A DNA stretch of 64,000 bases from a virus (lineage: Duplodnaviria > Caudoviricetes). Under the pieces are notes generated by a model, which saw only the letters and a list, made by a program, of their open reading frames with translations, searched no databases and was not told the DNA's origin. This document shows positions 7,601-64,000 of the stretch, piece by piece. Made by a program: the position numbers and the translations under genes. Every line of letters starts with the position of its first letter. Within the stretch, counting starts at the first letter, position 1. The stretch lies in IMG/VR virus record IMGVR_UViG_3300006805_000023. One strand, written 5' to 3'.

Positions 7601-8618
7601 CCCGAACCAGTTCTCCAGCAGCTCCAGCTCCTCGCGGTCGTCGGCCAGCTCTGCCTCTTCGAACTCCTCGTCCAGCTCAACGCCATCGTCTGCCTCTTCG
7701 AATTCTTCGTCCAGTTCTTCTCGTAACAGCTCCTCGTCCAGCTCCAGCCAGGAACTGTTCTTGCTGCTCGGTGGCTCGCTTCTCACTCTGGGAGACGGGG
7801 TGACGCCGCTTAGGTTGTACGCTCCCCCTGAGTCATCGTCGGCCAGTTCTGCCAGCTCGGCTAGTTCTGCCTCCTCCAACTCAAGCTCTAGCTCTAGCCC
7901 CTCGTCGAACTCCTCATCGAGCTCAAGCTCAACACCGTCGTCGGCGTCTTCAAACTCCAGCTCTAGCAGTTCCACACCATCGTCTGTCTCCTCCCAGAGC
8001 AGTGCATCCTCGAACTCCTCCAGCTCATCCTCCAGTCCGTCGTCGGCCTCCTCGAACTCCTCCAGCTCATCCTCCAGTCCGTCGTCGGCCTCCTCGAACA
8101 GCTCCTCCAGTTCTTCGAGTTCCTCGCACCATGCTACCAGCTACGGTAACACACTTGGAACAGGCAACCGCACTAGCTTTATCACCACTCAAACCAACAC
8201 AATCAATGGTGGTGATGCCAGCAGTTTGGTTGATGGCAACACAGCCTCTGGCGGGGGCTTGCTTCTGACACTCGGTTCCCCGGCCTACATTCGGTTTGAC
8301 CTTGGTAGCGCCCGTTGGATTGACCAGGTGCGCTGGATACAGTCGAGTGCTGCCTCAAGTGGTACCTGGCGCTGGGAAGGGTCAAGCGACACTATCAACT
8401 GGACCGTCCTCTCGGCCAACTTCACCCTGGGTGGCTCCACAACACAGACTCATGACCTTAACATCTGGCAGGACGCATTCAGGTACTACCGGATCATTCA
8501 GGTGAGCGGCTCGATCACGAGCACGACAATCCGTGAAGTTGAGTTCCAGATCGACGCCTCTTCCGGGATCGACTACTCCAGCTCATCCAGCTCCTCCAGC
8601 AGCTCATCTTCACCCTAA
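4620..8618 (+). CDS. large baseplate wedge protein (P2 gpI/T4 gp7-like N-terminus) with poly-Ser tracts and F5/8-type C (discoidin-like) domain
   Basis: N-terminal DPTKA...LRHRLRGTHSGLYLLGAVLG...ITELW; C-terminal LVDGNT...IRFDLGSARWIDQVR...WEGSSDTINWT...FRYYRII; Ser tracts 7614-7748, 7833-8126, 8577-8612. Confidence 0.65.
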   Translation: MRTLDYQIATLEDGALFNLLPRTVRSRDGGAVRALVRLLESRHNEMAEVYRQLPRLQDPTKAGAFAPEDFREDPVLYAQWKELRERLSPLSAPEQLLLDHLAELVPVSVRARSWEQQSLRALAGACGDTLPQGPFSNYWRDFVASATLRHRLRGTHSGLYLLGAVLGIVDIKITELWTSYDIKQPETPQQTGTSRLVLVPDEYPLWGEASSLLERGNELGSETSFQSPQVPYGTPGYSPLIQDDGGSTVTATFPRLSPSPSSPYSFRKIVNQNNPFGNFIGEVRGALEPGTYLSDVDAVGRGVIRFPYLALTGFATFQLSEHLTKTITVAISGTSTQSMALTGPTSKVRFKSSRYNASYVVDPLEMSRFYLPELVVLIPDATPDDGTLSRTVPARPVTGSLDGTRIIAPADLKVMSLGGMNETAGVARALAQGQLPMTREVNQELFGVSSKDLVRYAPYKPLTSVVLADANGLCWELTVDQSGVVLLSESNKAATTAPVQNDNGTMVEWAVSVVGKFVPRATQLSRNDVVFLSSDSFSGYVYLSQGGLFSSRVQGEFITEVLHGDGTPNEQNLRALYHNVVENPPEHLRGVMSEDAFAVSQDTGVLFQTRPEDSVQASPLLRDRVPSGIAANLIPGDEGFSAERSMGSLTGRTACNDIRNRYVGIEATLVQPVPTGDATRNDGLTYDYPIEFLTYYGFWHWRDRLTNAPYKSHYLYGSASPTCGGTLVTESLGGDGPNEGSHIPPQGDFPEVSSTGFRVSPNSQVTLRDLTTEWRREFHQSAEALATAASVVDSGGQAKISALAEQPVGSLFTITSPSGNYTTSGAFHLGGGVLDLTFIATEDVELYRRRGELELSSERQVVLNIRSTDVIKTSWRIGYTNSSGRHLLRFGQVVPGNQYEATFTVPDGSYSAWADSSGGQHQLSLRIDVPTGTLPTWPELAGQQLMGGGERDAIEVTIVDPGEHYYDYGDGRSSLDPLLSGKKWFRGGDWAGGAPNQFSSSSSSSRSSASSASSNSSSSSTPSSASSNSSSSSSRNSSSSSSSQELFLLLGGSLLTLGDGVTPLRLYAPPESSSASSASSASSASSNSSSSSSPSSNSSSSSSSTPSSASSNSSSSSSTPSSVSSQSSASSNSSSSSSSPSSASSNSSSSSSSPSSASSNSSSSSSSSSHHATSYGNTLGTGNRTSFITTQTNTINGGDASSLVDGNTASGGGLLLTLGSPAYIRFDLGSARWIDQVRWIQSSAASSGTWRWEGSSDTINWTVLSANFTLGGSTTQTHDLNIWQDAFRYYRIIQVSGSITSTTIREVEFQIDASSGIDYSSSSSSSSSSSSP
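7614..8126 (+). repeat. poly-serine coding repeat (unit approx. PSSASSNSSSSSS) in two blocks
   Basis: direct translation; mixed TCN/AGY codons; interrupted by a 28-aa non-Ser spacer. Confidence 0.95.
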
Positions 8619-8627
8619 GTATTTCAC

Positions 8628-9587
8628 ATGGACTGGCCAGACATCCCCGTAGCTTCAATCGCAGACATCCTAAGCACCTCCACGTTTCTGGTGTGCGACC
8701 AGCCCAACCTAGCTGGGCAAGGGCCAGCTGCTTTCAAGGTCGTCGATCGCGAGCTGCTACGCCGCATCTGCGGAGTTGCCGATATCCAGGTCTTTTCGAC
8801 GGCGGGCTCAACCTCCACATGGACCAAGCCCGCCCTGGCTTCCATGGTGGACGTTTTAGTCGTTGGCGGAGGTGGTGGTGGCGGCGGTGGTCGCAGAGGC
8901 GCGGCGACCACAGTACGCGGCGGTGGCGGTGGTGGTGCCCCTGCAGCGATCAAAAGGCTGCGCATTGAAGCCTCCCAGCTCGACCCTACTGTGTCGGTGT
9001 ATGTGGGAAACGGTGGTGGTGGCGGGGCAAAGGCTACAACGAACGACGCCAACGGCTCAAACGGCGGAGCTGGTGAAAGTTCTTCGTTTGGAAGCATCAT
9101 CGCGGTCGGCGGCTCGGTCGGCGGGGGAGGAAGCGCCAGCCCAGGCGCAGCTGGTTCTCTCAAAAACAACTCAATCTCGATCTACAACGGCATCGCAGGA
9201 GCCACGGGGGCTGGAGGTCTCGGTGGCGTCACTGCTGGTACGAAACCGAGTGCTCTCGCTTATCACGCACCAACCGGAGGCGGAGGTGGTGGGGGTATCA
9301 ACGGTTCTGGCACGGTAGGCACAGGAGCAGACAGCGGTGACATGGGGTCGTCTGGTGACGTTCTATTGGCCGGAGCAACGCCAGCGGGTAGCAACGGCGG
9401 CAACAGCATCTACCGCTTCGGGGTCGGCGGGGCTGGCGGTAGTGCCAGTGCTACAGCTGACGCTCAGGACGGCGGCACCGGCGGTAGAGGTGCTGGCGGT
9501 GGCGGTGGCGGTGGTTCTCTAAACGGCTTCAACAGTGGCGCTGGTGGTGCCGGTGGTGCCGGTCTCGTGATCGTCATCACTACATAA
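8628..9587 (+). CDS. glycine-rich tail fibre/virion protein
   Basis: VDVLVVGGGGGGGGG, GGAGESSSFG, GGAGLVIVIT: typical phage Gly-rich fibre domain. Confidence 0.7.
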   Translation: MDWPDIPVASIADILSTSTFLVCDQPNLAGQGPAAFKVVDRELLRRICGVADIQVFSTAGSTSTWTKPALASMVDVLVVGGGGGGGGGRRGAATTVRGGGGGGAPAAIKRLRIEASQLDPTVSVYVGNGGGGGAKATTNDANGSNGGAGESSSFGSIIAVGGSVGGGGSASPGAAGSLKNNSISIYNGIAGATGAGGLGGVTAGTKPSALAYHAPTGGGGGGGINGSGTVGTGADSGDMGSSGDVLLAGATPAGSNGGNSIYRFGVGGAGGSASATADAQDGGTGGRGAGGGGGGGSLNGFNSGAGGAGGAGLVIVITT

Positions 9588-9622
9588 GGGCGAACCCCGG
9601 TCTTGACATCAGGCCCGTTCTG

Positions 9623-11322: not shown

Positions 11323-11348
11323 CCAACGCCAACAAAGACCACGCCCTT

Positions 11349-12322: not shown

Positions 12323-12385
12323 CACGCTCTCGTTAGACGTCCCCCGTATCAAGTTCGGTCTATTCTCTAGGTGTAGGGGAACACG

Positions 12386-12739: not shown

Positions 12740-13216
12740 ATGCAGATCCTCCAACACACCCTCCAGGTCCCAACCGGCAACACTTTCAAGACTGCCGCTG
12801 CCTTCAAAAACAGCTCCGGCAAAGTCGGCAAGGTCACCTTCTTCTTCATGAATCAGACCAACGCTGGTCTGGACAACAAGGCTACGAAGGCCGAACCGAT
12901 CCTCGTCAACATCTATGAGTCCGATGACGGACGCACGCTGGGCAGCCCCCTCAACAATAGCCCCCTCGCGGTGGCCGGTGGTGCTGAGCAGCCCGTGACC
13001 GTCAAGATCTCCAAGGCCTTCATCACCCTCAAGCTCAAAGGCTCCAACGGCAAGGGCGGCAGCATGCGCGTCAACGCCTCCTACGAAGGCCGCCAGGAAA
13101 TGGGCCAGCTCGATGTGCTCTCCCTCGGCAAGGCCGGTTACGGCTTCGACGGCGGCACCGAGAACGGTCAGAGCGACGGCAGCTTCCCTTCTTACCCAGA
13201 AGGCGCTCCGGCCTAA
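12740..13216 (+). CDS. putative virion decoration/beta-sandwich protein (paralog A, no Ser tail)
   Basis: MQILQHT start and GKAGYGFDGGT...YPEG end shared with the next gene; YESDDG beta-sandwich motif. Confidence 0.6.
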   Translation: MQILQHTLQVPTGNTFKTAAAFKNSSGKVGKVTFFFMNQTNAGLDNKATKAEPILVNIYESDDGRTLGSPLNNSPLAVAGGAEQPVTVKISKAFITLKLKGSNGKGGSMRVNASYEGRQEMGQLDVLSLGKAGYGFDGGTENGQSDGSFPSYPEGAPA

Positions 13217-13304: not shown

Positions 13305-13982
13305 ATGCAGATCCTACAGCACACGTTCCCCGTCGCAACCGGGCTTACCGCCAAAATCGCGGTGCGCCTTCATCAAGATGGCAAGGTCAATCAGGCCTCG
13401 TTCACCTTCATCAACAAGCCGAACCAGAACCTGGATGGCAAGACGGTCCACACCGACCCTCTGACCATTTCTCTCCAGGCCTCCGCTGACGGCATCAACA
13501 ACTGGGTCGAAATCCTCGCCCCATTCGCGGTGCCAGGCAACGGCCAGATCACCAAAACCGTCACCCTTACTGCCAACTACATCAACATCTTGGGCAAGAC
13601 GGCGAACGGCAAAGGCGGCTACTGCCGTCTCCACTGCTCGTACGAAGGCGTGCAGGATGGTGGTCAGATCGAGGTCATCACCTTCGGCAAGCAGGGCTAC
13701 GGCTTTGACGGCGGCACCGGTCAGGGTCAGACCCTCGCCCAGCCTCCAGGCTACCCAGAGGGTACCTTCATCGAAGCCGAAGAGTCATCCAGCTCCAGCA
13801 GCTCGGAGAACTCCTCATCCAGCTCGTCCGACTCATCCGCATCTTCGAACAGCTCCAGCAGCTCGGTCAACAGTTCATCCAGCTCCAGCAGCTCGGTCAA
13901 CAGTTCATCCAGCTCCAGCAGCTCGTCCAAGTCCTCGCAGTCCTCGTCCAGCTCCAGCAGCTCGTCCAGCACCTCCGCCTAA
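13305..13982 (+). CDS. putative virion decoration protein (paralog B) with C-terminal poly-Ser tail
   Basis: paralog of 12740..13216 plus about 65-aa Ser-rich tail (13785-13979) that includes an exact 30-bp tandem duplication at 13861-13920. Confidence 0.65.
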   Translation: MQILQHTFPVATGLTAKIAVRLHQDGKVNQASFTFINKPNQNLDGKTVHTDPLTISLQASADGINNWVEILAPFAVPGNGQITKTVTLTANYINILGKTANGKGGYCRLHCSYEGVQDGGQIEVITFGKQGYGFDGGTGQGQTLAQPPGYPEGTFIEAEESSSSSSSENSSSSSSDSSASSNSSSSSVNSSSSSSSSVNSSSSSSSSSKSSQSSSSSSSSSSTSA

Positions 13983-15298: not shown

Positions 15299-16426
15299 TT
15301 ACAAGTTTAGTGCAGAGTGACCTGCGTTTGGTTTGTGTTTAACGAGTTGCCTCGTTCTCGAAACTCGTGGGGACGATACGCTCCCACGTGCCCGGATAAG
15401 GATGTTCCGCGCACCAACAGTGTCCGCGTTGGCGGTGTGGCCGCAAGAGCCACACTGGAACTTCTCATTCGTCCGGTTGTCATTTGCTCGGTGACTGCAT
15501 TCAGGGCACGTCTGCGAGGTGTAGGCAGGGTTTACTCGGACAAACAGAACACAGTTCTCTCTGGCCTTTTGTTCAACCCTACCCAGCACAGAGGCATAGC
15601 GCCAAGGAGCAAGGAGTTTACGAAATTGTTTGCCGCGCTTGGGCTGCTTGCCTATCTTCAGGCCAGTCAGATCCTCGACCGCAACGGTTTTGAGAATACC
15701 CCAGGGAAGTTGGTTAACGCAGCGGTTCAGGTAACGATCCCGCGTGGTGCGAGCCCTACGCATCCCCTGGCCCCCTGGCTTCGCCATCCTGACGGCCTTG
15801 CCGATGGTCTTGAAGTCACGACCGATCAAGTTGCCGTCACTAGTTGCAAGAACAGTGCTGACCCCGCAATCCACGCCCAGCTCCGCACCCTCGGACCGCA
15901 GTGCGAGGTCCGGAATGTCAATCCAGAGGATGGCATACGCCCCTCTGTTTGTGAGACTAAGTTCGCAGCCTTTGGCAAGCACTGCCCCAGGCTTGCTCAA
16001 CCATTTATTAAGAACCTTCGTGGACTTCGCTGGGACGTTTATGCGGCAACCACTGCGCAGCGTGGAAACGCGCAGCCAGGTGTCGAACGCCTTGCTTGAC
16101 TTCCCGAAGGTGATGGAGACACACTTCTGGTTGACTTTGACACCGCGCTTGACCACAGGGCGGGTGGCCTTATTGACCGTGGCTCGTTGGGATTCCCGCG
16201 TCGCCTTGACTATTCCGAGCGCCTGTCGCAAAGCTGCAGCTCTGTAGTTGAACGGTAAGTGCCCGAGCGGCACAACGTCAGCAGTGGCCTTATCGAGACC
16301 GCCTTTGTTACCCCACAGAAACTTGATGTAACGGTTGCAGGCGCTCAAAAAACGCGACTCCACCGCCCGCAGCTTGCGCAGTTTGGACTCGGTGGCGTAA
16401 AGTTTGATTTTGACAGAGCGCGTCAT
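15299..16426 (-). mobile_element. tnpB: IS200/IS605-family TnpB RNA-guided nuclease (solo, no tnpA)
   Basis: RuvC-I GVDCG, RuvC-II AVEDL, VNPAYTSQTCPEC and CGSCG zinc finger, RuvC-III NADTVGARNI. Confidence 0.9.
15337..15400 (-). ncRNA. putative 3' part of the TnpB omegaRNA / element right end
   Basis: overlaps tnpB 3' end; AACGAG-GCAA-CTCGTT GNRA hairpin (15341-15356) and an upstream imperfect stem; boundaries inferred. Confidence 0.4.
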
Positions 16427-18142: not shown

Positions 18143-21028
18143 ATGACAGTCCTGGTCAACAAGTCAACCGCACCGGTCACGGTGTTCTACTATGATGCCT
18201 CCAATCGTGAGCAGCAGACGGTCATAGATCCTGGCAAACAATTCGTCCTGAACGGAGCGGTTCACCCGTCCACTCAGGCTCTGATCAAACGTAAGGTGCT
18301 CGTGGTGAGTTCCAGCACCGTCACCGATCCACGCGCCAACACCCTCGCTTGGGGGACTCCACTCGTCTGGGCTGGAGGTTGGCGTCCCAACGCTTTGTAC
18401 AAGGCCGGATTCGTTGTCCTGCACAACGGCAAGACCTTTGTGGCGATTCTGGATCACACGTCCGTCAACCCTCCGTCGGAGTCCGATCAGCGCTGGGATC
18501 TGTTTTCCCTTAAGAGCTTCGCGGCGGCATTCGACTTCCTAGTCACGGTCGCCAACGATGGCTCCGTGGTGTCGTATGACGCAACTGCTGATGAATGGAA
18601 GCTCGCCAAGATTGGCGACGCCAATGTTCAGGGGATCTCGGCCAGCAAGATCACAGACATGGCCCAAGTCTTGGCTACGCTGATCGCCTCAGCAGGTGGC
18701 ACGATGACTGGCCCTCTGGTCCTCGTAGGAAACCCGACCGAGAACCTACACGCGGCACCAAAGCAGTATGTTGATGGCTTCCTGTCGAAGGACGGTGGCA
18801 CGATGACCGGAGCCTTGGTCCTGAACGGCAACCCAACTGCGGCCCTGCACGCCACTCCGAAGCAATACGTCGATACGTTCGTCTCTGGTGGTGGCGGCAC
18901 GATGACTGGACTATTGACGCTATCCGGCAACCCGATCGAGAGCCTGCATGCTGCTCCCAAGCAGTATGTTGATGGCTTCCTGTCGAAGGCTGGTGGCACG
19001 ATGACTGGTGACCTGACTCTGAGCGGCAACCCGTCCGCAGCCCTGCACGCAGCACCGAAGCAATACGTTGATGGCTTCCTGCCAAAGGCTGGTGGCACGA
19101 TGACGGGAGATCTGGTCTTGTCCGGTAACCCGTCCGCAGCCCTGCACGCCACTCCGAAGCAATACGTTGATGGCTTCCTGCCAAAGGCTGGTGGCACGAT
19201 GACGGGCGATCTGGTTCTGACTGGTAACCCGTCTGCGGCGTTGCACGCCACTCCGAAGCAGTATGTTGATGGCTTCCTGTCGAAGGCCGGTGGCGCAATG
19301 ACTGGTGCGATCACTGGCGCTCATGGCCTGCTGCCGCTCGCCGGTGGCGCGATGACCGGTGATTTGATCCTGTCGGGCAGCCCCTCAGCGGCATTGCACG
19401 CTGCCCCGAAACAGTACGTTGACCTGCGCCTTCTCAAGTCCGGTGACACCATGACAGGGCAGCTCAATCTGCTGTCAACCACCCTGAACGCTGGGACTGG
19501 ACTCTACGAGACGTCTGATTATGGCGCTCCTGCCTGGAAATCTGGGCTCCTGCAGGTCAGTTATCCACCGACTTACATAACCGGCAGTCACACCGCCACA
19601 GCGACCGAAAGCATCTTCGTCTTCCGTGGCTATCAGGAGTCAACCCTCAACTTGAGCACCAACGCCCCATTCTCGTTCAAGGAAATGACTGTGACCAACG
19701 ATGGCCAGGCCAACCTCTACGTGGTGGGCAGCTCCGAGACGGTCGTGATGGCTCCCGGCGAAACCCTGACCCTCCTACCATCCGGAACGGACTTCATTGT
19801 GTTGTCTCGCGGCTTGGTCCAAGACGTCGGAGCTGTCCTGGTGCTCTCTTCCATCGGCTCCGAGTCGGGAGGTACCAAGAACGTGACCTTCAGCATCTAC
19901 GACACCTCTAAAGAGACCACGGCGATCACCGTGGTGGCAAATCCCTCAGTCGGCGTCCTGCGCTTCACTGTGGGGAGCGCCCTGAACATCATGCTCGGCT
20001 CAAAGATCTTCGTGACCGGCACCGGCACGTATGATGGCGAGTATTTGGTACACGACGTCTCAGGCTCCAACATCGACGTGCAGACCAGCACCCCGTTTAC
20101 GATCTCCAAAACCGGCACTATGGGGGTGACCAGGGTTGCAGCACGCAGCAGCACGCTGCCTCTCCTAGCCTTGGTCTCCGACACCGCGCAGGCAGCCTGG
20201 GGTGGCGCATCTGGAGCCGTCCTCTCAATGGTGAGTGGCGGGGCTTTCCAGGCACGTTCACCGACCGGCAACGGCTATCGTCTTGACAGCACCGGCAGCA
20301 GCTTGGTCCTGAACCTCGACGAGCAGTTCGTCGATTATCGCCTGCTGTACGTTCACCTGCTCACCATGGGCAGGTCGTCTCCGGTCCGCTCAACCTTGAT
20401 CAGCGATGTGGCACAGCTGGCTGTCGCCCTCACCAGCTCCTCTGACAACGGCGGGTTCCTGCAGATCGAGCTGGCGAGCGTTGACGGGTTCGAAGCCGGA
20501 GACTTGGTGACCCTGGCTGGCACATCAGGCGATGGCGACTACACAATCACAGCGGTCCTCACCGGACCTCCTCGAATTCGCCTGAGCACCGCGTACTTCG
20601 CGATCACCACTGGCACGCTCACGAACAACATGGCGCTGGTCTTGACAGCGACCGAGACCGCCGGTCTGGTGGTAGGCTCGTTTGTGAACCTCAAGAACCT
20701 GCCCTGCCTTGGCGCACAGCGTGTGACCAGAGAAGTTAAGGGCCTGACTGGTACCACGATCATCGTCAAAGACCCGTTCGAGGCGTTCAACAACGCGCTG
20801 GGCAAGGTCGGAGTCTCGGAGCAGGCCTGCATCGCCAAGGTCGAATTCCTGGAAAACTCATCGAGCAGCTCCTCCAGCAGCTCCATCAAGTCGTCGCAGT
20901 CGAGCGCCAGCTCCGTCAACTCCTCGTCCAGCTCCAGCTCCAGCTCCGTCAACTCCTCATCATCGTCCAGCTCGGTCAACTCATCGTCCAGCTCGGTCAA
21001 TTCGTCCTCGTCCTCGTCGTCACCATAA
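18143..21028 (+). CDS. tail fibre with CBM5/12-like domain, 33-aa repeats and C-terminal poly-Ser tail
   Basis: WRPNALYKAGFVVLHNGKTFVA...WDL (CBM5/12-like); GGTMTGxLxLxGNPxxxLHAxPKQYVD repeats; Ser tail 20858-21022. Confidence 0.75.
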   Translation: MTVLVNKSTAPVTVFYYDASNREQQTVIDPGKQFVLNGAVHPSTQALIKRKVLVVSSSTVTDPRANTLAWGTPLVWAGGWRPNALYKAGFVVLHNGKTFVAILDHTSVNPPSESDQRWDLFSLKSFAAAFDFLVTVANDGSVVSYDATADEWKLAKIGDANVQGISASKITDMAQVLATLIASAGGTMTGPLVLVGNPTENLHAAPKQYVDGFLSKDGGTMTGALVLNGNPTAALHATPKQYVDTFVSGGGGTMTGLLTLSGNPIESLHAAPKQYVDGFLSKAGGTMTGDLTLSGNPSAALHAAPKQYVDGFLPKAGGTMTGDLVLSGNPSAALHATPKQYVDGFLPKAGGTMTGDLVLTGNPSAALHATPKQYVDGFLSKAGGAMTGAITGAHGLLPLAGGAMTGDLILSGSPSAALHAAPKQYVDLRLLKSGDTMTGQLNLLSTTLNAGTGLYETSDYGAPAWKSGLLQVSYPPTYITGSHTATATESIFVFRGYQESTLNLSTNAPFSFKEMTVTNDGQANLYVVGSSETVVMAPGETLTLLPSGTDFIVLSRGLVQDVGAVLVLSSIGSESGGTKNVTFSIYDTSKETTAITVVANPSVGVLRFTVGSALNIMLGSKIFVTGTGTYDGEYLVHDVSGSNIDVQTSTPFTISKTGTMGVTRVAARSSTLPLLALVSDTAQAAWGGASGAVLSMVSGGAFQARSPTGNGYRLDSTGSSLVLNLDEQFVDYRLLYVHLLTMGRSSPVRSTLISDVAQLAVALTSSSDNGGFLQIELASVDGFEAGDLVTLAGTSGDGDYTITAVLTGPPRIRLSTAYFAITTGTLTNNMALVLTATETAGLVVGSFVNLKNLPCLGAQRVTREVKGLTGTTIIVKDPFEAFNNALGKVGVSEQACIAKVEFLENSSSSSSSSSIKSSQSSASSVNSSSSSSSSSVNSSSSSSSVNSSSSSVNSSSSSSSP
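18695..19441 (+). repeat. 99-bp (33-aa) tandem repeat array in tail fibre
   Basis: six full units from 18695, one 54-bp truncated unit at 19289, a seventh full unit at 19343. Confidence 0.95.
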
Positions 21029-21926: not shown

Positions 21927-22548
21927 GGTCTGGGACAAGGTCTCACCTGAGACGCTCGCCTTCCTAGACTGTCACGAAACCATGGGACTACTGGAGCACG
22001 GCCAAGAGGCCGCTCTTGAGTTATGCGCCATGGACGCCCTGATCGAGGAGTTCGAGAGCCACATCAAGCGCAGCCCACGCCACGGGCGGGTCAGAGATAC
22101 ATGGCAGACTCTGAAAGAAGCAGTTCGTATTGGTAACGTTGGACCGCAGATCCTACTCAGGTTCTCACGCCGCACCAAAATCATGCTAGAACAAACCAGA
22201 AAAAACCGCTTCGAGGCTTCCCTGATGGAGTCGCTCCTCAACATGGGAGACCTCAGCGCCCTCGCCCCTGAAAGACTTCAGGACTTGGAGCCACACCAGG
22301 CTTTCCTACGCGAGATGGGCCGCACCTTCAAGTGTCGCAGCGGCGATCTGGCCGAATCGGTGTCGAGTGGCCTCCACGTTTACCTCGATGAAGCCGACAC
22401 CAAGAAGCTGCTGGAGCAACGCGCCATGATGCTTGAGCAGTTTGCTCTGAAGCACGGCTATCACTGCGTGCGCCGTGGCAGCATGTCGGACATCAGTCAC
22501 GGACACTCCAGCCAGCGGGTATCACGCTGGACCTTCATCAAGATATGA
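21850..22548 (+). CDS. hypothetical protein (start uncertain; ATG 21868 or 21982 possible)
   Basis: ORF track; ATGA overlap with the next gene. Confidence 0.5.
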   Translation: MVASQSMSASPIQPQDQTAPLSFTREVWDKVSPETLAFLDCHETMGLLEHGQEAALELCAMDALIEEFESHIKRSPRHGRVRDTWQTLKEAVRIGNVGPQILLRFSRRTKIMLEQTRKNRFEASLMESLLNMGDLSALAPERLQDLEPHQAFLREMGRTFKCRSGDLAESVSSGLHVYLDEADTKKLLEQRAMMLEQFALKHGYHCVRRGSMSDISHGHSSQRVSRWTFIKI

Positions 22549-30919: not shown

Positions 30920-31207
30920 TTAGGGCTTCACCAGCCACTCAAACCGCAGGTGGTTGTCGCCACACAGCACGGGCTCCCAGCCAGCGTCCTTGATCATGCT
31001 GCGGACGCGGCTGAACAGGCACCCCTGGTGACTACCGTCTGGGCTCTTCGGCCAAGTCTTCAAGGCCCTGCCGTCGTAGTGGACGGAGGCATGAATCACT
31101 TTTCCGGGGAGCTCAACTAGGGTTGTGCCTAGGATGAAATCAAGGGCCTCCAGCTTCTCAATAAGCTTGAGGAGCCCCACGTTTCGGTTTCTCAGTGTAC
31201 ATTCCAC
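30920..31207 (-). CDS. hypothetical protein
   Basis: 95-aa ORF in co-directional run. Confidence 0.4.
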   Translation of the reverse strand: MECTLRNRNVGLLKLIEKLEALDFILGTTLVELPGKVIHASVHYDGRALKTWPKSPDGSHQGCLFSRVRSMIKDAGWEPVLCGDNHLRFEWLVKP

Positions 31208-48321: not shown

Positions 48322-48328
48322 GTGGGGA

Positions 48329-48589
48329 CTAGGCAGAAAGCCAGGAAAGGGCAAACTGAGTTAAAGTTACGTTAGCCCCTTCAATAACGACAAGACCGCA
48401 CTCTTTCAGCCACTCCACAGCGGGGGTGACTTGAGTGCTGCCATTATCTCGAATTGACTGGAGGAGCCGCCAGTCATCACCCGTGATCTCGACCAGATTG
48501 ACGTTGTCAGTGGCGGTCGTGATCATCCCAGTCTCGATCAGACGAGGCTCTTTAGTGCGTTGAGCAAGTTCTTCGCGAAGAGACAGCAT
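48329..48589 (-). CDS. small hypothetical protein
   Basis: 86-aa ORF between baseplate genes and nrdA. Confidence 0.45.
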   Translation of the reverse strand: MLSLREELAQRTKEPRLIETGMITTATDNVNLVEITGDDWRLLQSIRDNGSTQVTPAVEWLKECGLVVIEGANVTLTQFALSWLSA

Positions 48590-49353: not shown

Positions 49354-50390
49354 TAGGTGTCGGGGCTGTTTGACAGCGAGATTTCGGCTTCGAACACCTG
49401 CTCTGGAGCATTGGCAAGGCTGCTCTTGACTTTTACTTTGCGCCCGTTGGGGCCGGTCGTCACCACAGTAACTGATGAAATAGACACTCGCGGTTCTGGA
49501 GCCACGGCATCACTCGTGTAGGCTGCTGCAATCTGGTCGAGGAGCGGGGTGGCCTGCTCGAAGACTAACTCAGGCAGTCTGCTGCCGATCCAAGGGCGCA
49601 TCAGGCGCTCCCCGATCCTGGTTTCGAGCAACATTGTGATGCTGGATTGCACCAAATCGGTGTCGTAGATGGTCGGGAAGGCCCAGGAAGAGTCCGTGGC
49701 ACCCTCCAGGCTGCTCACTTGGGCGTAGGAGCGGCGACGCATCTCGACGTTGGCCGTGGCGACGTCGTAATCGTCTTGAGCCGGTATCGTCAGGGTGAAC
49801 TTACCCGCCCCCTGATCCTTGACGACACGGCCAAAAGTGACCTTACGGCCAGGCTGCCAGATCGTGACCTCGGTTCCAGGCTCAAGAGAGATACCACCAG
49901 CCAGAATGACGTCGAACGACCCGCTTGCCAGCCTCGACGCCAAGGTCGTGGTGGTTGATGGGTAGAGGGTCTGAGTGGAAGCTGAAGGAGTGGACAGCTT
50001 GAGGATTGGAAGACCCAGACCACCCCAGCGGCGTAACACTATCTGCCTCTCTGCCTGAGGCATGATTCGCAAGGCGGCCACATCGTTCGGGGACGCAGCC
50101 GAGAAGGTGCCAGACGAGTTAACGCACCGAATCCTGATGAAAAATTCACCCGGAGTGTCGTAGGTGTGCTGGTACGCGAAGTCCCTGCCGACCGGCAAAA
50201 AGTCGCCAGTATCGACCGACCCATCGCCCCAGTCCACGATGAACTTCACGTAGGGGTCGTCATCCAGTCCGGAGGATACGGCGGCGACCTGGACCGATGC
50301 GATCATGAGGTGGTCCAGAATCCAGCGACCGCCGGACTCACTGGCGTTGCCGACAAGCAGCCTGCGGTTGACCAGCTTAGGCGCTGCCAT
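49353..50390 (-). CDS. PKD domain + gp25/GPW-like baseplate protein
   Basis: VDWGDGS...HTYDTPGEF (PKD); ITMLLETRIGERLMRPWIGSRLPELVFE...EPRV (gp25). Confidence 0.8.
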   Translation of the reverse strand: MAAPKLVNRRLLVGNASESGGRWILDHLMIASVQVAAVSSGLDDDPYVKFIVDWGDGSVDTGDFLPVGRDFAYQHTYDTPGEFFIRIRCVNSSGTFSAASPNDVAALRIMPQAERQIVLRRWGGLGLPILKLSTPSASTQTLYPSTTTTLASRLASGSFDVILAGGISLEPGTEVTIWQPGRKVTFGRVVKDQGAGKFTLTIPAQDDYDVATANVEMRRRSYAQVSSLEGATDSSWAFPTIYDTDLVQSSITMLLETRIGERLMRPWIGSRLPELVFEQATPLLDQIAAAYTSDAVAPEPRVSISSVTVVTTGPNGRKVKVKSSLANAPEQVFEAEISLSNSPDT

Positions 50391-52455
50391 GTCGCAGCCC
50401 CTTTCTCATTTTGACAGCTGGGTGGTTCTCAGCAAGAGACTTGGCCTCCGGCGGGGCTTCACCGGCGGCCTCGACCAGGTTGACTTCCAGTTCCCCACCC
50501 TTGGCGTAGGCCTCGACCAGCTTGGTTCGTGACTCGACCAGCTTGTCTGAGCCCGCAGTCCTGACAAGCGCTTTTGGGAGCGTCTCTGTGATGAGGGGCT
50601 CGCCGGTGTAGCTCTCGATCAGGCTGGTGCGTTTGGAGGTGTGCAGTTCGCTGATCGACTTGACTTCATTGATGATGCTCCTGACGAACTTGGCTCGGAG
50701 GAGCTTCTTGTCCTCGCTCTCCAGTGACTTCATCCTAGTGCTGAGGCCACGAATCAGGCTGTCCACCACCGACTGTTGTTTTGGAGTAGAGCGGCGGCGA
50801 CTTTCAAACAGGTTACCTGACTTCGCCCTAGCCCCAGACATAAGGGGAGCCTTCGGAGGAGCCCCATCAACCGGTTCAGCCTCGGAGCCGGAACCGTCTG
50901 GCATTTCGAGGTCGTCCATACCGTCTCCGGCCTCGTCCCCCATATCACCAAGGTCGTCCATCCCACCCATCCCGCCAAGGCCACCGCCTCCAGCGCCACC
51001 GGCGGAGTCCTGATCTGTGCCGAGAGCGCGGGCCACACTGGTGCCGAGCTTGGCGATGTCGATGAAATAGCGAGGCACCGAGAGGTACTCACGGAAAACA
51101 AGGTCGATGATCTCGCGGTTCGGGATCTCAAGCTGCTGGCACAACGTGGCGATTGTGTTGGCGAGGTTGGCCTGCTTCTCCAAGATAGCAACGTTGACCT
51201 CTTCCTCGATGGTCGAGATCCGGCTCATCTTGACCTTGATGTTGTAACGGGTCGGGTCCTTACCGGAAAGGGCGAGGTGGATCTGGCCCAGCCGGTAGAA
51301 GCCAGCCACTAGGATGCGCCGAATGTTGCGGACCATGCGGGCAAACCGGATGTCCTGACTGACCAACGAAGACGAGGCCAGACTGGAGCCTTCGTCGTCC
51401 TGACCCATATAGGTCTTGGGGATGCGAGCGCCACCGTAGAGCTGCTTGAGGAGCTGCTCAATGTCGGGGACGTCGGGGACGTCCTTGTCGCCGACCATGC
51501 TGGTGATCTCCGTCGTGTCGTCGTTGCCACGCTTTGGCAGGAACAACATCGACTCCAGGGCTGGAGGGTTGTAGCGTGACTCCATGTTCCCAGCCGACAG
51601 CATGACGTGCTGGTTGCGCAGCATGTGGGCGAACAGGTGAATCGACTCCATGGAGTCCGTGATGTCCTGCTCTTTGGTGTCGATGATGACGGCGTGCCGG
51701 GTAGGCATCGTGTGACGGCGGTAGAGCACCATCTGGTCGATGGACTGGTCGATCTTGCGCCACAGCGAGTAGAGCTTGTCCATGATCGCCACCCCATACT
51801 CGGTGTCGGACCGATACAGGCGGCGAAAGTGAATGAAGGACCACGGCGGAAAGATCTCCTTGTGGGAGGGGTAGAGGACATCCTCATCGCGAGGCTTCTG
51901 GCCGTCCCACAAAAACCCAATCAGACGGCGGGTGGTCTTGTCCCACAGACGCCGGACCGGCATCCGGGCTGAGTTGGCTGAGTCAGCACGTGGAATCCCG
52001 ACCAGTTGTTGAACCCCGTTGTCGTTGTACAGGATGCGTCGAAACTCGTTGCCAGTACCGGCGGCCCCCATGACAATGCTAGGCAGGTGCTCCTCGGAGT
52101 TGATCCGATCGAGCATTGCGTTGAGGTCCTTCTCGATCTCACCGTCGTCGCACTCATACCAGAGAGCGCGCCCCTTGTTGATGTCTGGCTGGCAGGTCTC
52201 CTCGGCGTACACCTCAAGCATTGGCCCGACCAGCTCAGAGTCGGACATCGCCAGCATGTCGCCATAGCGGGACTCTGGCGAGGCGTTGGAGTTCTGGCGC
52301 GCTAGGCCCTGGTCCTCATTGCCAGAACCGGCAATCTGGCTACCAACACCAGCCCTGCCCTTGACTTCATCCTTGGTAAGGTTAACGGGGGACGAGCTAT
52401 ACCAGCCAAACAGGCCTTGAAGCCCTGCCAGGATGCCTATCTTGGGAGTTTCCAT
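50377..52455 (-). CDS. portal protein (T4 gp20-like)
   Basis: LEVYAEE, FIHFRR, YGVAIMD, IDQMVLYR, DVPDIEQLLKQLYGGARIPK, LVSQDIRFARMVRNIR. Confidence 0.9.
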   Translation of the reverse strand: METPKIGILAGLQGLFGWYSSSPVNLTKDEVKGRAGVGSQIAGSGNEDQGLARQNSNASPESRYGDMLAMSDSELVGPMLEVYAEETCQPDINKGRALWYECDDGEIEKDLNAMLDRINSEEHLPSIVMGAAGTGNEFRRILYNDNGVQQLVGIPRADSANSARMPVRRLWDKTTRRLIGFLWDGQKPRDEDVLYPSHKEIFPPWSFIHFRRLYRSDTEYGVAIMDKLYSLWRKIDQSIDQMVLYRRHTMPTRHAVIIDTKEQDITDSMESIHLFAHMLRNQHVMLSAGNMESRYNPPALESMLFLPKRGNDDTTEITSMVGDKDVPDVPDIEQLLKQLYGGARIPKTYMGQDDEGSSLASSSLVSQDIRFARMVRNIRRILVAGFYRLGQIHLALSGKDPTRYNIKVKMSRISTIEEEVNVAILEKQANLANTIATLCQQLEIPNREIIDLVFREYLSVPRYFIDIAKLGTSVARALGTDQDSAGGAGGGGLGGMGGMDDLGDMGDEAGDGMDDLEMPDGSGSEAEPVDGAPPKAPLMSGARAKSGNLFESRRRSTPKQQSVVDSLIRGLSTRMKSLESEDKKLLRAKFVRSIINEVKSISELHTSKRTSLIESYTGEPLITETLPKALVRTAGSDKLVESRTKLVEAYAKGGELEVNLVEAAGEAPPEAKSLAENHPAVKMRKGLRHGSA

Positions 52456-54343: not shown

Positions 54344-54759
54344 ATCTCATACTTAGTGTGGCCGTCGAACGTGGAGCCGATACTGGTTCTACGTGTGCGC
54401 GCACGCGCTCGCTGGCCGCGCTGGCTCGCGTGCGCGATTCCCTCTTAAACGTGATTTCTGTTATAGCTTTAGCTTTGAAACGGAGTGAACAAGAAGATGA
54501 TGGTAGAACAGAAGATCACCTCTCTCCCCCTCCACGGCCCACGGAGTGGGGCGGAAACCCAACTTGTTGGGTTGTTAAGAAGGGACATAACCTTAAAAAG
54601 TAAACGCGAGCGCGAGCGGCCCGCTGGCTGGCTCCGGCATGTGACTCGCCTAGCGGCGAGGACGGCCCCCACTCCGTGGGGCCGGGTGGCGGTTGGATGG
54701 AGACGATGCAATGTGGCAGCAGGCTGCACTGTTTGGTTTTCTTGGCTGGTCCCCACACC
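54344..54759. other. about 400-bp divergent intergenic region with several inverted repeats
   Basis: IRs 54398-54407/54427-54436, 54538-54551/54667-54680, 54556-54563/54566-54573; AT-rich patch around 54445-54480. Confidence 0.6.
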
Positions 54760-57700
54760 ATGAGCAAAGTCCTAAAGCAGCCCGTTATGTCCGGGCCTGA
54801 GCATCCACCATCCGAGGAGCATCCGGCCTGCATTAAGTGCGCCTTGTTCAAGACTGCCGAGACCCCGTTCTGGGACTCCTTCTACGAGCAGGACGGCAAG
54901 ATCAAGATGGGGATGCCCGATTACCCGGTGAACGGTGGCTGGGTGATGGTAGTCGGCGACGGGATCTCCAAGGAAATGGACGAGGAGGAGAAGCCGACCG
55001 ACCTTAGCGTGCTGATCAAGCACCTACGGAGCATGGGTCTCAACAACCGCGTTGTCTATGTGCCAGGCACGCTCTGTGTGGCCCCGGACGGTACCGAGGG
55101 ACGCAAACGCAACCTCAAGAAGCCAGAGATCAGCCGCTGCTTCGGTCACCATATCCGGTGGCGGGTGGACTACCTGAAGAACATCGGCCTGTGTGGGCTG
55201 ATTGCCGCCGGTCCCGTGGCGTCCTATAGTCTGCTGGGCCACATGGACTCCAAGCAGTGGGGGCAGCGCAAGCCCTACGTCCACGACCACGACATCCCGG
55301 TGATCGGGACGATTGACGTGGAGGCGACTCTGGTTGCTCCGACCAAGCGCCCCCTGCTGATTACGCAGCTCCAGTTTGCTGTGGACTCCTTGGAAGGGCG
55401 CATCGCAGCTACTGACCGTCACCAGGTCGCCTACACAGTGGCGTGGTCTCCTGAAGAGTTCGATGCTTGGTTTGAAGGTCTGGACCTGCGCAAGCCGCTA
55501 ATGTGGGACGTGGAATCCAGTGGGGTCAAGCCCTTCGCAGCTGGTTACCGTCTGGGCGTGTTTTCCTTCTACCACCCGTCCCGCGACAAGGTTCTGATCG
55601 TGGCGACTCCGGACTACAAGCATGCTCACGACAAGTATTCAGACTGGGTGGATGCTGCCCTGGAACGCTTGGAACAGGGCTCCGAAGAGGATGTGCCGTG
55701 CAACAGTTTCGACCAGCAGTGGCGCAAGATGGAGCCAAAGGTCAAGAAGGTGATCGAGGCTGAGGAGTACAAGAAGCTGGGTCACAATCAGCAGTTCGAT
55801 GATGTGTCGGTGTATGCCAGGTACCGCTGGCAGATGGGCGGCTACTTCAACGACACGATGATCATGAACTACCTGTTGACGCCGGACGAAAAGCGCAACG
55901 GTTTGGAGGCTCTGGTCCAGAAGTGGTATCCGGAGGCCGACGGTTACTGGGACGCTCTGGACGAATATAAGAGCCAGTACAACCCAGAGTCTTACATGGA
56001 GATTCCGTGGGACGTCTTGGTGCCTTACGCGGCCTACGACACCTGGGTGCTGTGGCCGGTGTTCATGGCGATCCTCAACGAGTTCAAGAGGCTGGATGAC
56101 GAAGAGTATGGCGGCCTGTTCGTGAGGCGCACCGAGGGTGGAGTGATCCAGCCCACCTACTCGCTCCTTGAGTATGCGATGTTTGGCCGGAAGATTCACC
56201 AACGGATGTGCACCGAGCTGGAGAAGACCGGAGCACCGATCGACACCGAGCTGCTGCCACGCATTTACGACGAGTACAACAGGCAGCGTGATGCTTTGGC
56301 CGTCAAGCTCAACTCCCATCAGGACGTCGTAGCCTTCTGCTCCGAGGTCCTAGGACCACAGGCCAAGAAGGGAACCCCGAACTTCAAGCTGTGGAAGGCA
56401 GGCGAGATCCCAGAGCTCAACTGGGGCTCGCCGGTCCAGCTCAAGACCTTCTTCCTTGACTACCTCGGAATGAGCACTGACCGCCGGACCAAGACCGGCG
56501 GTGTCAGCCTGGATGAAACGGCCCTGCTGGGTATGATGACGGAGCACGAGATCGTCAAGATCCTGCTGGACTGGCGCGGAGCCGACAAGTTCGTGACCTC
56601 CTTCCTCGATCCGCTCATCGAAAAGCGCGTGCTGTGGCCGGACGGACTCACCCACGCCTCCTTCAGGCCGTCCGGCACCGAGACCAGCCGTCTCGCAGTG
56701 TCCAGCCCGAACGTCCAGGCCATCCCGCGTGACGGCTTGGTCAAGAAGCTCTACTGCCCACGCGACCGTGCCAAGGGCTGGCTGGTGACACGCGATTATT
56801 CAGGCCTCGAAGTCCGCGTGATGGCTTGTATGGCGTCCGATGAATCGCTGATTCACACCTTCATGACGGGTGGTGACCCCCACTTCAACACGCAGCGCCA
56901 CTTCTTCCACGACAAAGCTGACAAGAAGAATAAGACCCAGCGCTCGATTTGCAAGCAGGCCCTGTTCGGGCGAATTTACGGCCAGACCGCCAAGGGTCTG
57001 TATGAACTACTGCTCGGAAACGGTGTGATGAACCCCGACACCGGCCTCCCGATCACTATGGAGGAAGCCGAGGCCTTCAACCAGATGCTGGACGACGCCT
57101 ATCCGGCCATCGCCAGCTGGGTCAACGCCTCTCACCGCTTCTCGATCGCTACCAAATACGTGGCGTCGCCCTTCGGATTCGTCCGCCCTCTGGACGCCCT
57201 GCAGGACCACGCCACCTTCCTGACCCGGAAGCGTGAAAAGGGTTGCTGGGACAATCAGCGCTTCCGCAAGCTCTCCAGCGCTATCTCGAAGGACCTCAGG
57301 CGTGCTCAGAACTGTGTGGATGCTGAGACCGAGTGTCTTACTGCCGAAGGCTGGAAAACCTATGATAAGCTGGCAGCCGGTGAGCTAATCATGACGAAAA
57401 ACCCGGATACCGGAATCCTGGAGTGGCACCCGATCCTGAAGATGAACGTCTTCGAGGAATCGTCCACGCCGGTATGGGAAGTCGAGACCAACGCCTTCTC
57501 GGCCTGCGTTACCCCGAACCACCGCTGGCTGGTGACGACCCGCAAGCGTGGCGGCAAGGGTAAGCCAACCCAGTATGTCGATGAAATCTTGACGATGGAG
57601 CAGATGGTAGCCTCGAAGGGCTTCTAGTCTCTGCACCGGACTGGCGAGTGGGAAGGTGCAGACGCCCCTTATTCAGACCGGTTCCTGCAGCTCATCGGGT

Positions 57701-58791
57701 GGTATGTGACCGACTCCAGCATCAAGCGTGGAGTGGATGGGAGGTCTTCTACAATTGAAGTCGGTCAGGACTCTTCCAAAAAAGACAACTGCGAGCAGAT
57801 TCGAAGCATCCTTGGCGACTGGGCTATCAGCGAACGCCCGGAAGGGACTTTCTTGCGCTGGCGTGTGAATGTTGCTATCTCAGAGGAGGTCATCAGGCTG
57901 CTACCGCGCCGGAAGCTCACCAACGAGTTCATCAGGTCACTCTCGCAGTTTCAAGCAAGACTCGTGATGAGTGAAATGCTCAAAGGAGATGGCAGCCGTG
58001 GGCGTGTCCTCTATGCTGAGGACCAGGAGGAGGTTGACTTATTTCAGACTCTGGCTTTCATAGCTGGCATCGCCACCAACGCTGGTTGGCGTGACATGTC
58101 GAAGTACCCGCCACGTGCCAGCAAAAAGCTTAAGCGTCCGATCATTTCGAAGAAGGGTGGCTACTGGGAAGTTTCGGTTCTCAGCCGTAAGACAGCGCAG
58201 GTCCTGAAGCCACAGGTCAAGATTATCGACGACAAGCGCTTGGTGTGGTGCCCGACCGTGCAGAACAGCACCTGGGTGGCCCGTCGCAAGGGCTGCGTTT
58301 ACGTGACAGGGAACACCGCGATCCAGTCGGCTGCCGGAGACCTCACGGTGTTCGCTGGTTGGCAGATCCGCAACGTCATGAAGGACGTTGGGCTGGACTC
58401 CGAGATCGTCAACATCGTTCACGATGATATTTGGATCAACGTCAACAGCGATGATCAGGTGCCGATGACCACCGCTGTGATGCGTCAGGTCATGGACAAC
58501 TCACCGGACTGGCTCCCCGACATGCTCCCAGGCTATGACCCGTCTTGGATCACGGTGCCGATCATCGGCGAGTGCGACGTCGGGATCAACGCCAAGGACG
58601 CCTTTGGCGCTAAAGAACCTGATTGGGGCGTGGCCGACTCCCGTCTGAAGCTCAAGGTGCCAGGCGTCGTCATCAACAAGATCAACGGGCGCGACCTTGC
58701 GACGGAATGCGAGCCAGACTACGTCGATTTCTTGGATAACTCAGATCTTCTCAGGTCAGTACTCAACGTACAACGTAGCCAGTTCAATTAA
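54760..58791 (+). CDS. polA: family A DNA polymerase (UDG-like N-terminal domain, 3'-5' exonuclease, intein) interrupted by one in-frame TAG at 57625-57627
   Basis: WDVESS, GHNQQFD, YAAYD exo motifs; TGTETSRL, RDYSGLEVR (motif A), KQALFGRIYG (B), AQN|TAIQS, IVHDD (C); track ORFs 54676..57627 and 57706..58791 are in the same frame. Confidence 0.9.
57313..58314 (+). mobile_element. intein (334 codons) with degenerate LAGLIDADG domain and internal TAG
   Basis: starts CVDAETECLTAEGW, TPNHRW block B, LIGWYVTDS and MLKGDGS, ends VWCPTVQNSTWVARRKGCVYVTGN followed by Thr+1. Confidence 0.9.
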
Positions 58792-61771: not shown

Positions 61772-61778
61772 AACCACT

Positions 61779-62690: not shown

Positions 62691-63706
62691 CACCCCTTTT
62701 TGACCTCGTGTACCCTGACGACCGCGATGACATTCGCGGCCTCAGGGTAAAACTTTTGGTCCATGGTGATTCTGACAGGCATCTTCACACCACAGTTGGC
62801 ATCACCGAACAAGTTCACGACCACGTAACTGCGACGCCATGAAGCAAATGAGTTGCTAGTAGAGGCAAAGACCTTCAGAGCCTCTTGCTTTAGGCAAGCA
62901 CGAACCTCACGTGATTTCGACTCTGATAGTGGGGTACGACCGCGCTCTTCCCCTGCAGCGAGGCCACCGGGGGAGGTCAGGAGTTCGAGCTTTTCGGGGT
63001 CAAATCCGAGGGACGTCTCTTCACCGCCTCCCTCCGCAAATGACAGCGTGGCCGACCCTTCTACCGAGTCAACTACCTGATCATAGTCTGGTCGTATGCT
63101 GTCACGCACGGTTCGCGGCGTGCAAAATGACACCTCGTCCCCATTGGACGAGAACAGGCAATAGCCGCCCTCACCGCGTGAATTCACAGCCCTCTTCGTC
63201 AGGTGCCTTCTGATGAACTCGTGAGCAGACCAGCCTGGACAATGCAAGATCCTGAACTCGTCCGGGGTTTGAGTAGTCTCGATGGTACCAGGCGTCATCC
63301 CTGACTCCTGAATGACGCGGGAAGCTGTCTCCGATACCTCGCCTTCGTAGTGTTTCATCAAGGACGACGCCAGCATGACGGCTCGCTTTTCGATCGTCAC
63401 GAACTCAAACCGCATCGTGGTCTTGCGCCTTCTGATCCGCGATCCGATCACGATGTGACGTTGTGTAGGCAGGGTGACGGATAGCGCCGTGTCCTTGATC
63501 GAAAACTCGATCTCCCCACCGGCTTTGATCAGCTGCGAGTAGTTGGCGAGCCAGGCTTCCGACTGCTGCCCCATCGGTTTGCTCACGTGCCACGCCATCG
63601 ACCAGTCCCCATCAGCCCGGTCCACGAACCTGAGAGACTCAAACGAGTCGCTGAGTGCGTCATCCTTGTAACGCACACACCAGGAGGTCTTTTGTTGGAA
63701 TGCCAT
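62654..63706 (-). CDS. putative baseplate hub (T4 gp27/late control D-like) protein
   Basis: 350 aa; HYEGEVSE, IETT, CPGWSAHEFIRRHL...GYCLF pattern; TAATG-coupled to upstream Ser-tailed gene. Confidence 0.45.
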   Translation of the reverse strand: MAFQQKTSWCVRYKDDALSDSFESLRFVDRADGDWSMAWHVSKPMGQQSEAWLANYSQLIKAGGEIEFSIKDTALSVTLPTQRHIVIGSRIRRRKTTMRFEFVTIEKRAVMLASSLMKHYEGEVSETASRVIQESGMTPGTIETTQTPDEFRILHCPGWSAHEFIRRHLTKRAVNSRGEGGYCLFSSNGDEVSFCTPRTVRDSIRPDYDQVVDSVEGSATLSFAEGGGEETSLGFDPEKLELLTSPGGLAAGEERGRTPLSESKSREVRACLKQEALKVFASTSNSFASWRRSYVVVNLFGDANCGVKMPVRITMDQKFYPEAANVIAVVRVHEVKKGCYTCAHFALPST

Positions 63707-64000
63707 TAGGACGAGCTAGACGACGAAGAAGAGCTGTTGACCGACGAAGAGGACGAAGAGGACGAGGAGGAACTGTTGACCGAGCTGCTGGAGCTGGACG
63801 AACTGTTGCGCGACGAGGATGATGAAGAGGAACTGTTGACCGAGCTGCTGGAGCTGGACGAGCTGTTGACCGACGAGGATGAGGACGAGCTGGAGTTGGA
63901 AGAGTTGGACGAACGAGAGGACGCGGAGCTGGCTGAGGACTCCGAGGAATAAAGCTCTGCGATGCTATCGAGGTGTGGCACCGCGATGGCCCAGGCCGAC
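63706..64000 (-). CDS. 3' end of a gene truncated by the window edge, ending in an 80-aa poly-Ser tail
   Basis: frame is open to the window end (…SAWAIAVPHLDSIAELY) then Ser tract 63948-63709. Confidence 0.8.
   Translation of the reverse strand, partial: SAWAIAVPHLDSIAELYSSESSASSASSRSSNSSNSSSSSSSSVNSSSSSSSSVNSSSSSSSSRNSSSSSSSSVNSSSSSSSSSSSVNSSSSSSSSS

Follow-up and report, generated by a model that had tools for sequence, protein, structure and literature searches.

The stretch of viral DNA considered here, IMG/VR record IMGVR_UViG_3300006805_000023 (64,000 nucleotides (nt), hereafter the window, with positions counted from its first letter), is part of a large T4-like myovirus, as judged from its structural gene content, and combines two features: long poly-serine tracts on four proteins and a gene for a soluble enzyme of the Maf/sialyltransferase fold. 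We propose that the two are an enzyme-substrate pair, in which the phage transferase O-glycosylates the poly-Ser tails and linkers of virion proteins, and we put the probability of this reading at about 0.6. An enzyme-substrate relation is the simplest explanation because soluble enzymes of this fold recur, in bacteria as well as in phages, beside unrelated proteins that have only long Ser stretches in common. The features concerned are as follows.

31158-32297, minus strand: DUF115/MptE-like-fold enzyme, 379 amino acids (aa), soluble; candidate poly-Ser O-glycosyltransferase.
4620-8618, plus strand: baseplate/tail-module protein of 1332 aa, with internal poly-Ser linkers at 7614-7748 and 7833-8126 and an S12-P C-terminal tail at 8577-8615.
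13305-13982, plus strand: protein of 225 aa, with an N-terminal beta-sandwich (jelly-roll) and a 65-aa C-terminal poly-Ser tail (13785-13979).
12740-13216, plus strand: jelly-roll protein of 158 aa, a tail-less paralogue of the 13305-13982 protein (43% identity, E-value 4e-39).
18143-21028, plus strand: tail fibre of 961 aa; it contains a module resembling CBM5/12 and fibre repeats of 33 aa, and its C-terminus is a poly-Ser tail of 56 aa (20858-21025) whose last residues are SSSSSSSP.
63706-64000, minus strand: C-terminal 97 residues of a gene cut by the window edge, with a poly-Ser tail of about 80 residues (63709-63948) running to the stop codon.
32340-32819, plus strand: small, very acidic protein, divergent from the enzyme gene and conserved in three related phages, with an S9 run at 32601-32627.

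When tracts are defined as 20-aa windows with at least 60% Ser in a six-frame scan, the window contains seven of them, against none in 200 shuffled versions (100 by mononucleotide and 100 by triplet). A sequence-only reading of this DNA had already located Ser tracts in these genes, and each of them does translate in frame to a Ser-rich sequence; the sub-motifs it had described, VNSSSS, KSSQSS and ENSSSS, are indeed common to the tracts, as is the terminal S(n)P. Its view that the tracts did not arise by slippage stands in part. Their Ser codons are mixed (TCC 89, TCG 69, AGC 64, TCT 27, TCA 27 and AGT 14) and are used as elsewhere in the window, and therefore single-codon slippage is not the source; on the other hand, tandem repetition is present within the tracts, with unit lengths of 30, 42 and 60 nt and, for one unit, 100% identity across 2.2 copies, which is a sign of repeat dynamics. 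A perfect 42-nt unit lies at 8007-8099 in the baseplate-module gene, a 60-nt unit recurs in the edge-cut gene, whose tail is built of blocks of eight to ten serines punctuated by VN or RN, and the tails at 13785-13979 and 63709-63948 have pieces of 21-44 nt in common, the 44-nt pieces being 95% identical. In a near-identical assembly (L218), the proteins with tracts differ from those of the window by whole-unit insertions or deletions only, namely one 14-aa unit missing from the baseplate linker, 10 aa in the tail of the 225-aa protein and one 33-aa fibre repeat, although collapse of short-read assemblies is a possible source of these differences. Judged by their repeat structure, the tracts appear to evolve by duplication and loss of units of 30-60 nt. 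The exact 21-nt tail motif had no match in viral contigs, and its matches in metagenome contigs were all chance ones that lacked Ser tracts. A codon pattern, WSN x 12, was also tried as a tract detector and was rejected as too unspecific, matching codon-periodic and poly-Asp/Glu regions.

The proteins that carry the tracts are different in kind. In the baseplate-module protein, which has a weak Tail_P2_I match below the Pfam cut-off (E 0.006) and for which no relative was found in IMG/VR, the internal tracts (45 and 98 residues long) lie on either side of a short hydrophobic segment and N-terminal to a domain of about 150 aa. This domain (residues ~1165-1318) is F5/8-type-C-like according to Atlas language-model features (F5_F8_type_C score 0.94), and PHROG 33012 matches residues 1163-1314. 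The internal tracts thus also tether a lectin-like domain and, from their position in the sequence, look like plain linkers; the linker and acceptor roles are compatible. In the 225-aa protein, the AlphaFold2 model has strands across residues 1-126 and a disordered tail. Its fold matches are generic jelly-rolls, including a domain of lambda gpJ and a phage cement protein, and because only generic beta-sandwiches are matched, the label "decoration protein" is a guess. The tail fibre is assigned by PHROG tail fibre families (E 4e-25) and by Pfam CBM_5_12. Its 33-aa repeats form a 99-nt tandem array of about 5.5 copies at 18761-19302, of which L218 has exactly one unit fewer, representing either a real change in copy number or a collapse during assembly. 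The S9 run at 32601-32627, which the sequence-only reading had counted with the other tracts, is in frame in the small acidic protein, and this protein is kept in two related phages (L198 and L001); the run itself is absent in L198. We have rejected it as a member of the system, and from this comparison it is probably incidental.

Enzyme and tails are kept together in three related phages, whose enzymes are 84%, 80% and 57% identical to that of the window. The first two of these (L001 and L198) retain the poly-Ser tail of the tail fibre, and the tail of the 225-aa protein is found in relatives at 57-69% identity, being 10 aa shorter in one of them (P0123). Relatives as distant as 57% identity likewise have both jelly-roll paralogues, one tailed and one untailed; on one contig these are P0125 and P0126. 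Moreover, the phage with the 57%-identical enzyme encodes a 134-aa protein that is unrelated to these proteins and has no homologue in the window, yet ends in ...FLESSSSSQSSTSQSSNSSSSSSSSP (final residues SSSSSSSSP), with the same junction and terminal S(n)P as the window tails. Relatives at the level of the sheath (33-41% sheath identity) that lack the enzyme had no tracts, which is weak evidence since they are fragments of 6-24% estimated completeness.

The key evidence for a functional connection comes from the enzyme family as a whole, which has more than 270 homologues. The sample comprised 80 loci from viral contigs and 80 from genomes, the latter mostly of Verrucomicrobiota and Planctomycetota, including Phycisphaerae. 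A tract lies within 10 kilobases (kb) of the enzyme gene in 117 of the 160 loci (59/80 viral and 58/80 genomic). Control regions of 20 kb were drawn at random from five of the bacterial genomes in the sample; of these 16 regions, two contained a tract, short and probably off-frame in both cases. Sheath loci of related phages without the enzyme contained none (0/11), so that 117/160 stands against 2/27 (Fisher p 7e-11 by locus). Clustering of the enzymes at 70% identity leaves 52 clusters, of which 30 are positive (p 9e-6). The co-occurrence of enzyme and poly-Ser tails that the sequence-only reading had put forward as a test is therefore in its favour, both across the family and in the three relatives. 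The arrangement is often intimate: with tracts placed in open reading frames (ORFs) of at least 100 aa, and adjacency taken as a gap of at most 300 bp, a Ser-rich ORF directly adjoins the enzyme in 91 of the 159 loci with a callable enzyme ORF, and in 81 of these it is immediately downstream on the same strand, the ORFs often overlapping. In another 22 loci a Ser-rich ORF lies farther off, and among the 46 loci that have none, about 17 stop at the enzyme gene or close to it. Furthermore, all four extra paralogous enzyme copies in two Phycisphaerae genomes also have a Ser-rich neighbour, and no major clade of the enzyme tree is without the association. A true figure above 73% is probable, because two phage genomes scored as negative, one of them complete at 192 kb, do have Ser-rich genes, at distances of 13 kb and about 75 kb from the enzyme, a dispersed layout that is also the layout of the window.

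The Ser-rich partners are mutually unrelated proteins. In Verrucomicrobiota they are RHS/Laminin-G proteins of 2400-2500 aa, in Phycisphaerae they are Ser/Gly-rich proteins with a Hint domain, and on viral contigs they are T4-type neck, head-completion, Laminin_G_3, BclA_C and FG-GAP proteins. In light of this diversity, one may ask whether this subfamily of the Maf/GT42 fold, together with homopolymeric or near-homopolymeric Ser, constitutes a widespread and hitherto undescribed protein-glycosylation system in Verrucomicrobiota and Planctomycetota as well as in their phages, whose fibres, baseplates, necks and heads would carry mucin-like brushes of glycan, with the poly-Ser tail as a portable acceptor module for any virion protein. 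We would give this broader proposal even odds.

Several of the sampled loci deserve separate mention. One viral contig has an ORF of more than 1780 aa with 68% Ser near the enzyme (L007, 2-5350, plus strand), another a T4-type neck protein with a Ser-rich N-terminus of about 800 aa (L018, 17034-20246, plus strand), and a third a head-completion protein with a Ser-rich N-terminus (L030, 1749-3044, plus strand). A fixed pair, consisting of a DUF115 enzyme of about 300 aa and an overlapping Ser/Gly-rich protein of about 500 aa with a central Hint-like domain, occurs at L121 (9992-12351), about 80 similar loci, G001 and G002, in Phycisphaerae genomes and many viral contigs of 30-45 kb, and reaches four copies per genome in two genomes. 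In Prosthecobacter algae (L003, 9422-21499), a 642-aa fused enzyme is encoded between a methyltransferase gene and the gene for a 2499-aa RHS/Laminin-G protein with several Ser tracts, which is followed by a GT9 heptosyltransferase-like gene.

The enzyme itself was recognised in the sequence-only reading as GT42/DUF115-like, and Pfam, PHROG, Foldseek and profile matches all agree with that assignment. A disordered linker joins the enzyme's small N-terminal alpha/beta domain (residues 1-85) to the catalytic domain (~117-357). The Pfam family PF01973 (MptE-like / Maf_flag10 / DUF115) is matched over profile positions 18-170 of 171 with 26.3 bits (E 7.2e-6; gathering cut-off 34.6), and a precomputed table assigns PF01973.24 to the protein; no NCBIfam family was found for it. 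Its PHROGs match is the "alpha-2,3-sialyltransferase" family (E 1e-6). In an AlphaFold2 model built from 30 homologues (predicted local distance difference test, pLDDT, 86.6), the Rossmann-like central domain superposes on solved PF01973 members, and CstII (E 5e-5) and Maf (E 8e-5) are top-ranked by Foldseek, a fold comparison that also favours the earlier assignment. When the family profile is compared with the PDB, it matches GT42 sialyltransferases only (E ~0.04). In this alignment NGPSL falls on the nucleotide loop of CstII and LGFxxxYLLGCDF...Y.F on LGYKEIYLSGIDFY...Y.F. The enzyme's LNGPSL pairs with GNGPSL of CstII, with G144 and S146 invariant and N143 conserved in at least 90% of the 30 homologues. 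The invariant Y292 lands on CstII Tyr162 (alignment numbering), and the position of Tyr156 is N or M. We take Tyr156 and Tyr162 of CstII to be phosphate-binding and its His188 to be catalytic. According to the model, the enzyme appears to be a separate subfamily of the Maf fold and not a canonical Maf, because the C-terminal helical bundle of Maf is missing. It has no signal peptide or membrane segment, which is consistent with modification in the cytoplasm, the compartment in which phage particles are put together and in which Maf modifies flagellin.

Putting these observations together, we propose the following mechanism. In the cytoplasm, a transferase with the Maf / GT42 / MptE-like fold would act on poly-Ser C-terminal tails and inter-domain linkers, its acceptors in the window being the tail fibre, the baseplate-module protein, the small jelly-roll protein and the edge-cut protein. 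Late in infection, before or during assembly, sugars would be O-linked to many of the Ser hydroxyls. By analogy with the structural relatives of the enzyme, the donor might be a host-supplied acidic sugar activated with cytidine monophosphate (CMP), such as a nonulosonic acid (NulO) or Kdo. Each tract would thereby become a mucin-like bottle-brush, extended and hydrophilic, at the tail tip and baseplate, the end of the virion that contacts the host, and plausible roles of such a brush include reach or adhesion to host or floc polysaccharide, shielding and solubility. The suggestion of the sequence-only reading that the tracts are acceptor scaffolds is thus supported by the family-wide coupling, with the reservation that the internal baseplate tracts may serve as plain linkers as well.

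A number of observations weigh against this proposal. Many of the 160 loci are near-copies, particularly among Phycisphaerae, and therefore the raw count overstates their independence. Of the 22 other rows, bacterial or viral, in the Verrucomicrobiota clade to which the enzyme belongs, only 7 show a Ser-rich ORF at a distance of 10 kb or less, many of the contigs being short. The Pfam score of the enzyme is below the gathering cut-off (26.3 vs 34.6 bits), the MptE pyrophosphokinase is its second-best structural match, and in the homologue alignment no equivalent of the catalytic His188 of CstII was identified, nor any conserved His after the motif. The enzyme gene has no tailed gene next to it and is the first of a group on the minus strand that includes a Metallophos (SbcD-like) gene, at least 10 kb from the nearest tail. 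Finally, among the 58 window proteins scanned against Pfam there are no sugar-nucleotide synthesis genes, and the donor would therefore have to come from the host or from genes elsewhere in the phage genome.

One may argue that the tracts are unmodified flexible linkers and tails, acting as entropic spacers or solubility tags, while the enzyme targets the host surface, a host protein or DNA. The two internal baseplate tracts, leading to a putative carbohydrate-binding domain, do occupy a classic linker position, the tract of the 225-aa protein is predicted to be disordered, tract length changes by whole repeat units as expected of a loosely length-constrained spacer, and the enzyme gene sits beside the SbcD-like gene and not within the tail module. 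We nevertheless regard this explanation as unlikely: it leaves the direct adjacency of enzyme and Ser-rich ORF in 91/159 loci, with unrelated partner domains (controls 2/27), without an explanation; moreover, of the six long tracts, four are free tails at a C-terminus with nothing to connect, and the sheath-related phages that lack the enzyme also lack tracts.

Alternatively, the enzyme may modify the tracts without a sugar, as a transferase of the MptE/thiamine-pyrophosphokinase type that produces poly-phosphoserine or another adduct. The matched Pfam family is in fact named after MptE, and the absence of an identified CstII-type catalytic His and of sugar-donor genes from the window would be in keeping with such an activity. 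Kinase-type chemistry is less likely, and this explanation as a whole seems quite improbable to us, given that the profile matches in the PDB are GT42 sialyltransferases only, with two CMP-binding motifs and the Tyr162 equivalent, and that the PHROG match is a sialyltransferase family. It is also conceivable that host enzymes glycosylate or otherwise use the tracts, or that the tracts bind polysaccharide directly as adhesive or hydrogen-bonding tails; the phage would then have acquired its enzyme gene from a host only recently, and the role of the enzyme would be unrelated or redundant. In the enzyme tree, the clade of the phage enzyme falls inside the Verrucomicrobiota homologues with 99% support, suggesting exchange with a host, and those hosts have their own enzyme copies beside Ser-rich giant proteins. 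All four related phages, in contrast, retain both the enzyme (down to 57% identity) and the tails, which argues for a phage-specific need and makes this alternative, too, very unlikely. O-glycosylation of the tracts by the phage's own transferase is thus the reading we prefer.

The remainder of the window and its relatives give some context for the phage. Two further structural genes serve as landmarks.

33935-36316, minus strand: tail sheath.
50377-52455, minus strand: gp20-type portal.

Apart from the tail fibre, the other structural genes include gp25-like and T4-baseplate proteins, and they are mixed with genes for helicases, primase, ribonucleotide reductase, family-A DNA polymerase and NAD ligase. 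The database record of the enzyme sits on a 218-kb contig. Near-identical or related DNA is present in wastewater metagenomes, no close relative by DNA was found among deposited phages, and none of 50,697 deposited phage records contains a homologue of the enzyme protein. A host in Verrucomicrobiota is likely, as suggested by the nesting of the enzyme clade within homologues from this phylum. Two inteins, each with a Hint domain and a LAGLIDADG homing endonuclease, are encoded at 22545-25355 (plus strand) and 45040-48354 (minus strand); one interrupts a 936-aa protein, whose orthologue in the relative L001 is 528 aa long and intein-free, and the other lies inside the large subunit of ribonucleotide reductase. 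The family-A DNA polymerase is divided between two successive ORFs (54676-57627 and 57706-58791, plus strand). A TnpB/Cas12f1-like gene (TNB domain) at 15299-16426 (minus strand) lies amid the tail and baseplate genes and is also present in L218.

If the proposal is correct, it would have several implications. It would add a second and mechanistically different type of phage virion glycosylation, outside the actinophages, which pairs an enzyme of the Maf/sialyltransferase fold with a simple, portable tag as acceptor. A large and as yet unnamed enzyme subfamily of Planctomycetes-Verrucomicrobia-Chlamydiae (PVC) bacteria would gain a class of substrates, and the serine-rich-repeat glycoproteins of Gram-positive bacteria would gain a Gram-negative counterpart. 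In practical terms, a short poly-Ser tail and one soluble enzyme could serve as a tool for site-directed protein glycosylation. Full-text literature searches returned no paper linking DUF115/Maf-type enzymes with serine-rich or polyserine proteins of phages or PVC bacteria.

The proposed system has partial parallels in several known ones. Maf proteins are flagellin nonulosonic-acid O-glycosyltransferases that act in the cytoplasm and have a PF01973 central domain (structure 5MU5). They consist of three domains, including a C-terminal alpha-helical bundle (PMC11339370). The phage enzyme, in contrast, is 379 aa long and is made up of a small, unrelated domain at the N-terminus and a catalytic domain, with no C-terminal bundle; phage proteins with homopolymeric Ser tracts would provide its acceptors, and its sequence similarity to Maf is marginal (26.3 bits, below the Pfam cut-off). 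No flagellin or NulO synthesis genes are found among the window proteins scanned, and the family-wide neighbours are Ser-rich proteins. CstII and Cst-I of Campylobacter jejuni are GT42 sialyltransferases, and CstII sialylates the glycans of lipo-oligosaccharide, not protein; the phage enzyme differs in lacking the conserved Tyr156 position, and no His188 equivalent was identified in it. With MptE, a 6-hydroxymethylpterin diphosphokinase, it has only the fold in common, its context being surface-protein loci of phages and PVC bacteria and not an archaeal folate/pterin pathway.

A functional parallel, besides the glycosylation of flagellin by Maf, is found in the serine-rich repeat glycoproteins of Gram-positive bacteria (Fap1, GspB, SraP), which are served by GtfA/GtfB and an accessory Sec system and become extended stalks through dense glycosylation. 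In both cases long Ser-rich surface stretches go with a dedicated cytoplasmic O-glycosyltransferase, which in the Gram-positive systems is encoded beside the substrate gene. Their transferases, however, have a GT4 (GT-B) fold and their substrates SxSx dipeptide repeats, whereas here the fold is another one, the tracts are near-homopolymeric, and the organisms are PVC bacteria and phages. Neither GtfA/GtfB nor SecA2/SecY2 is present among the window proteins scanned, and the resemblance is functional only.

Polyserine linkers, internal in position, are also found in secreted bacterial glycoside hydrolases such as Cellvibrio cellulases and xylanases, and we know of no dedicated transferase for them. 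The Ser runs of the baseplate-module protein are similar in joining a body to a carbohydrate-binding module, whereas most tracts of the window are free C-terminal tails. As for virion proteins glycosylated by mycobacteriophages, no poly-Ser tails are known to us. Phage-encoded glycosyltransferases of the mycobacteriophages Che8, Corndog and Myrna are reported to modify virion proteins at their C-termini (Freeman et al. 2023, as summarised in PMC12619734), the targets being capsid and tail-tube subunits of actinophages. The window resembles this type in having a phage-encoded enzyme and C-terminal candidate acceptor regions on virion proteins; it differs in that the candidate targets belong to the tail fibre and baseplate of a jumbo myovirus of Verrucomicrobiota type. 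What sets the proposed system apart from all of these is the application of this enzyme fold-family to homopolymeric Ser, the phyla concerned, the parts of the virion targeted, and the portable tail.

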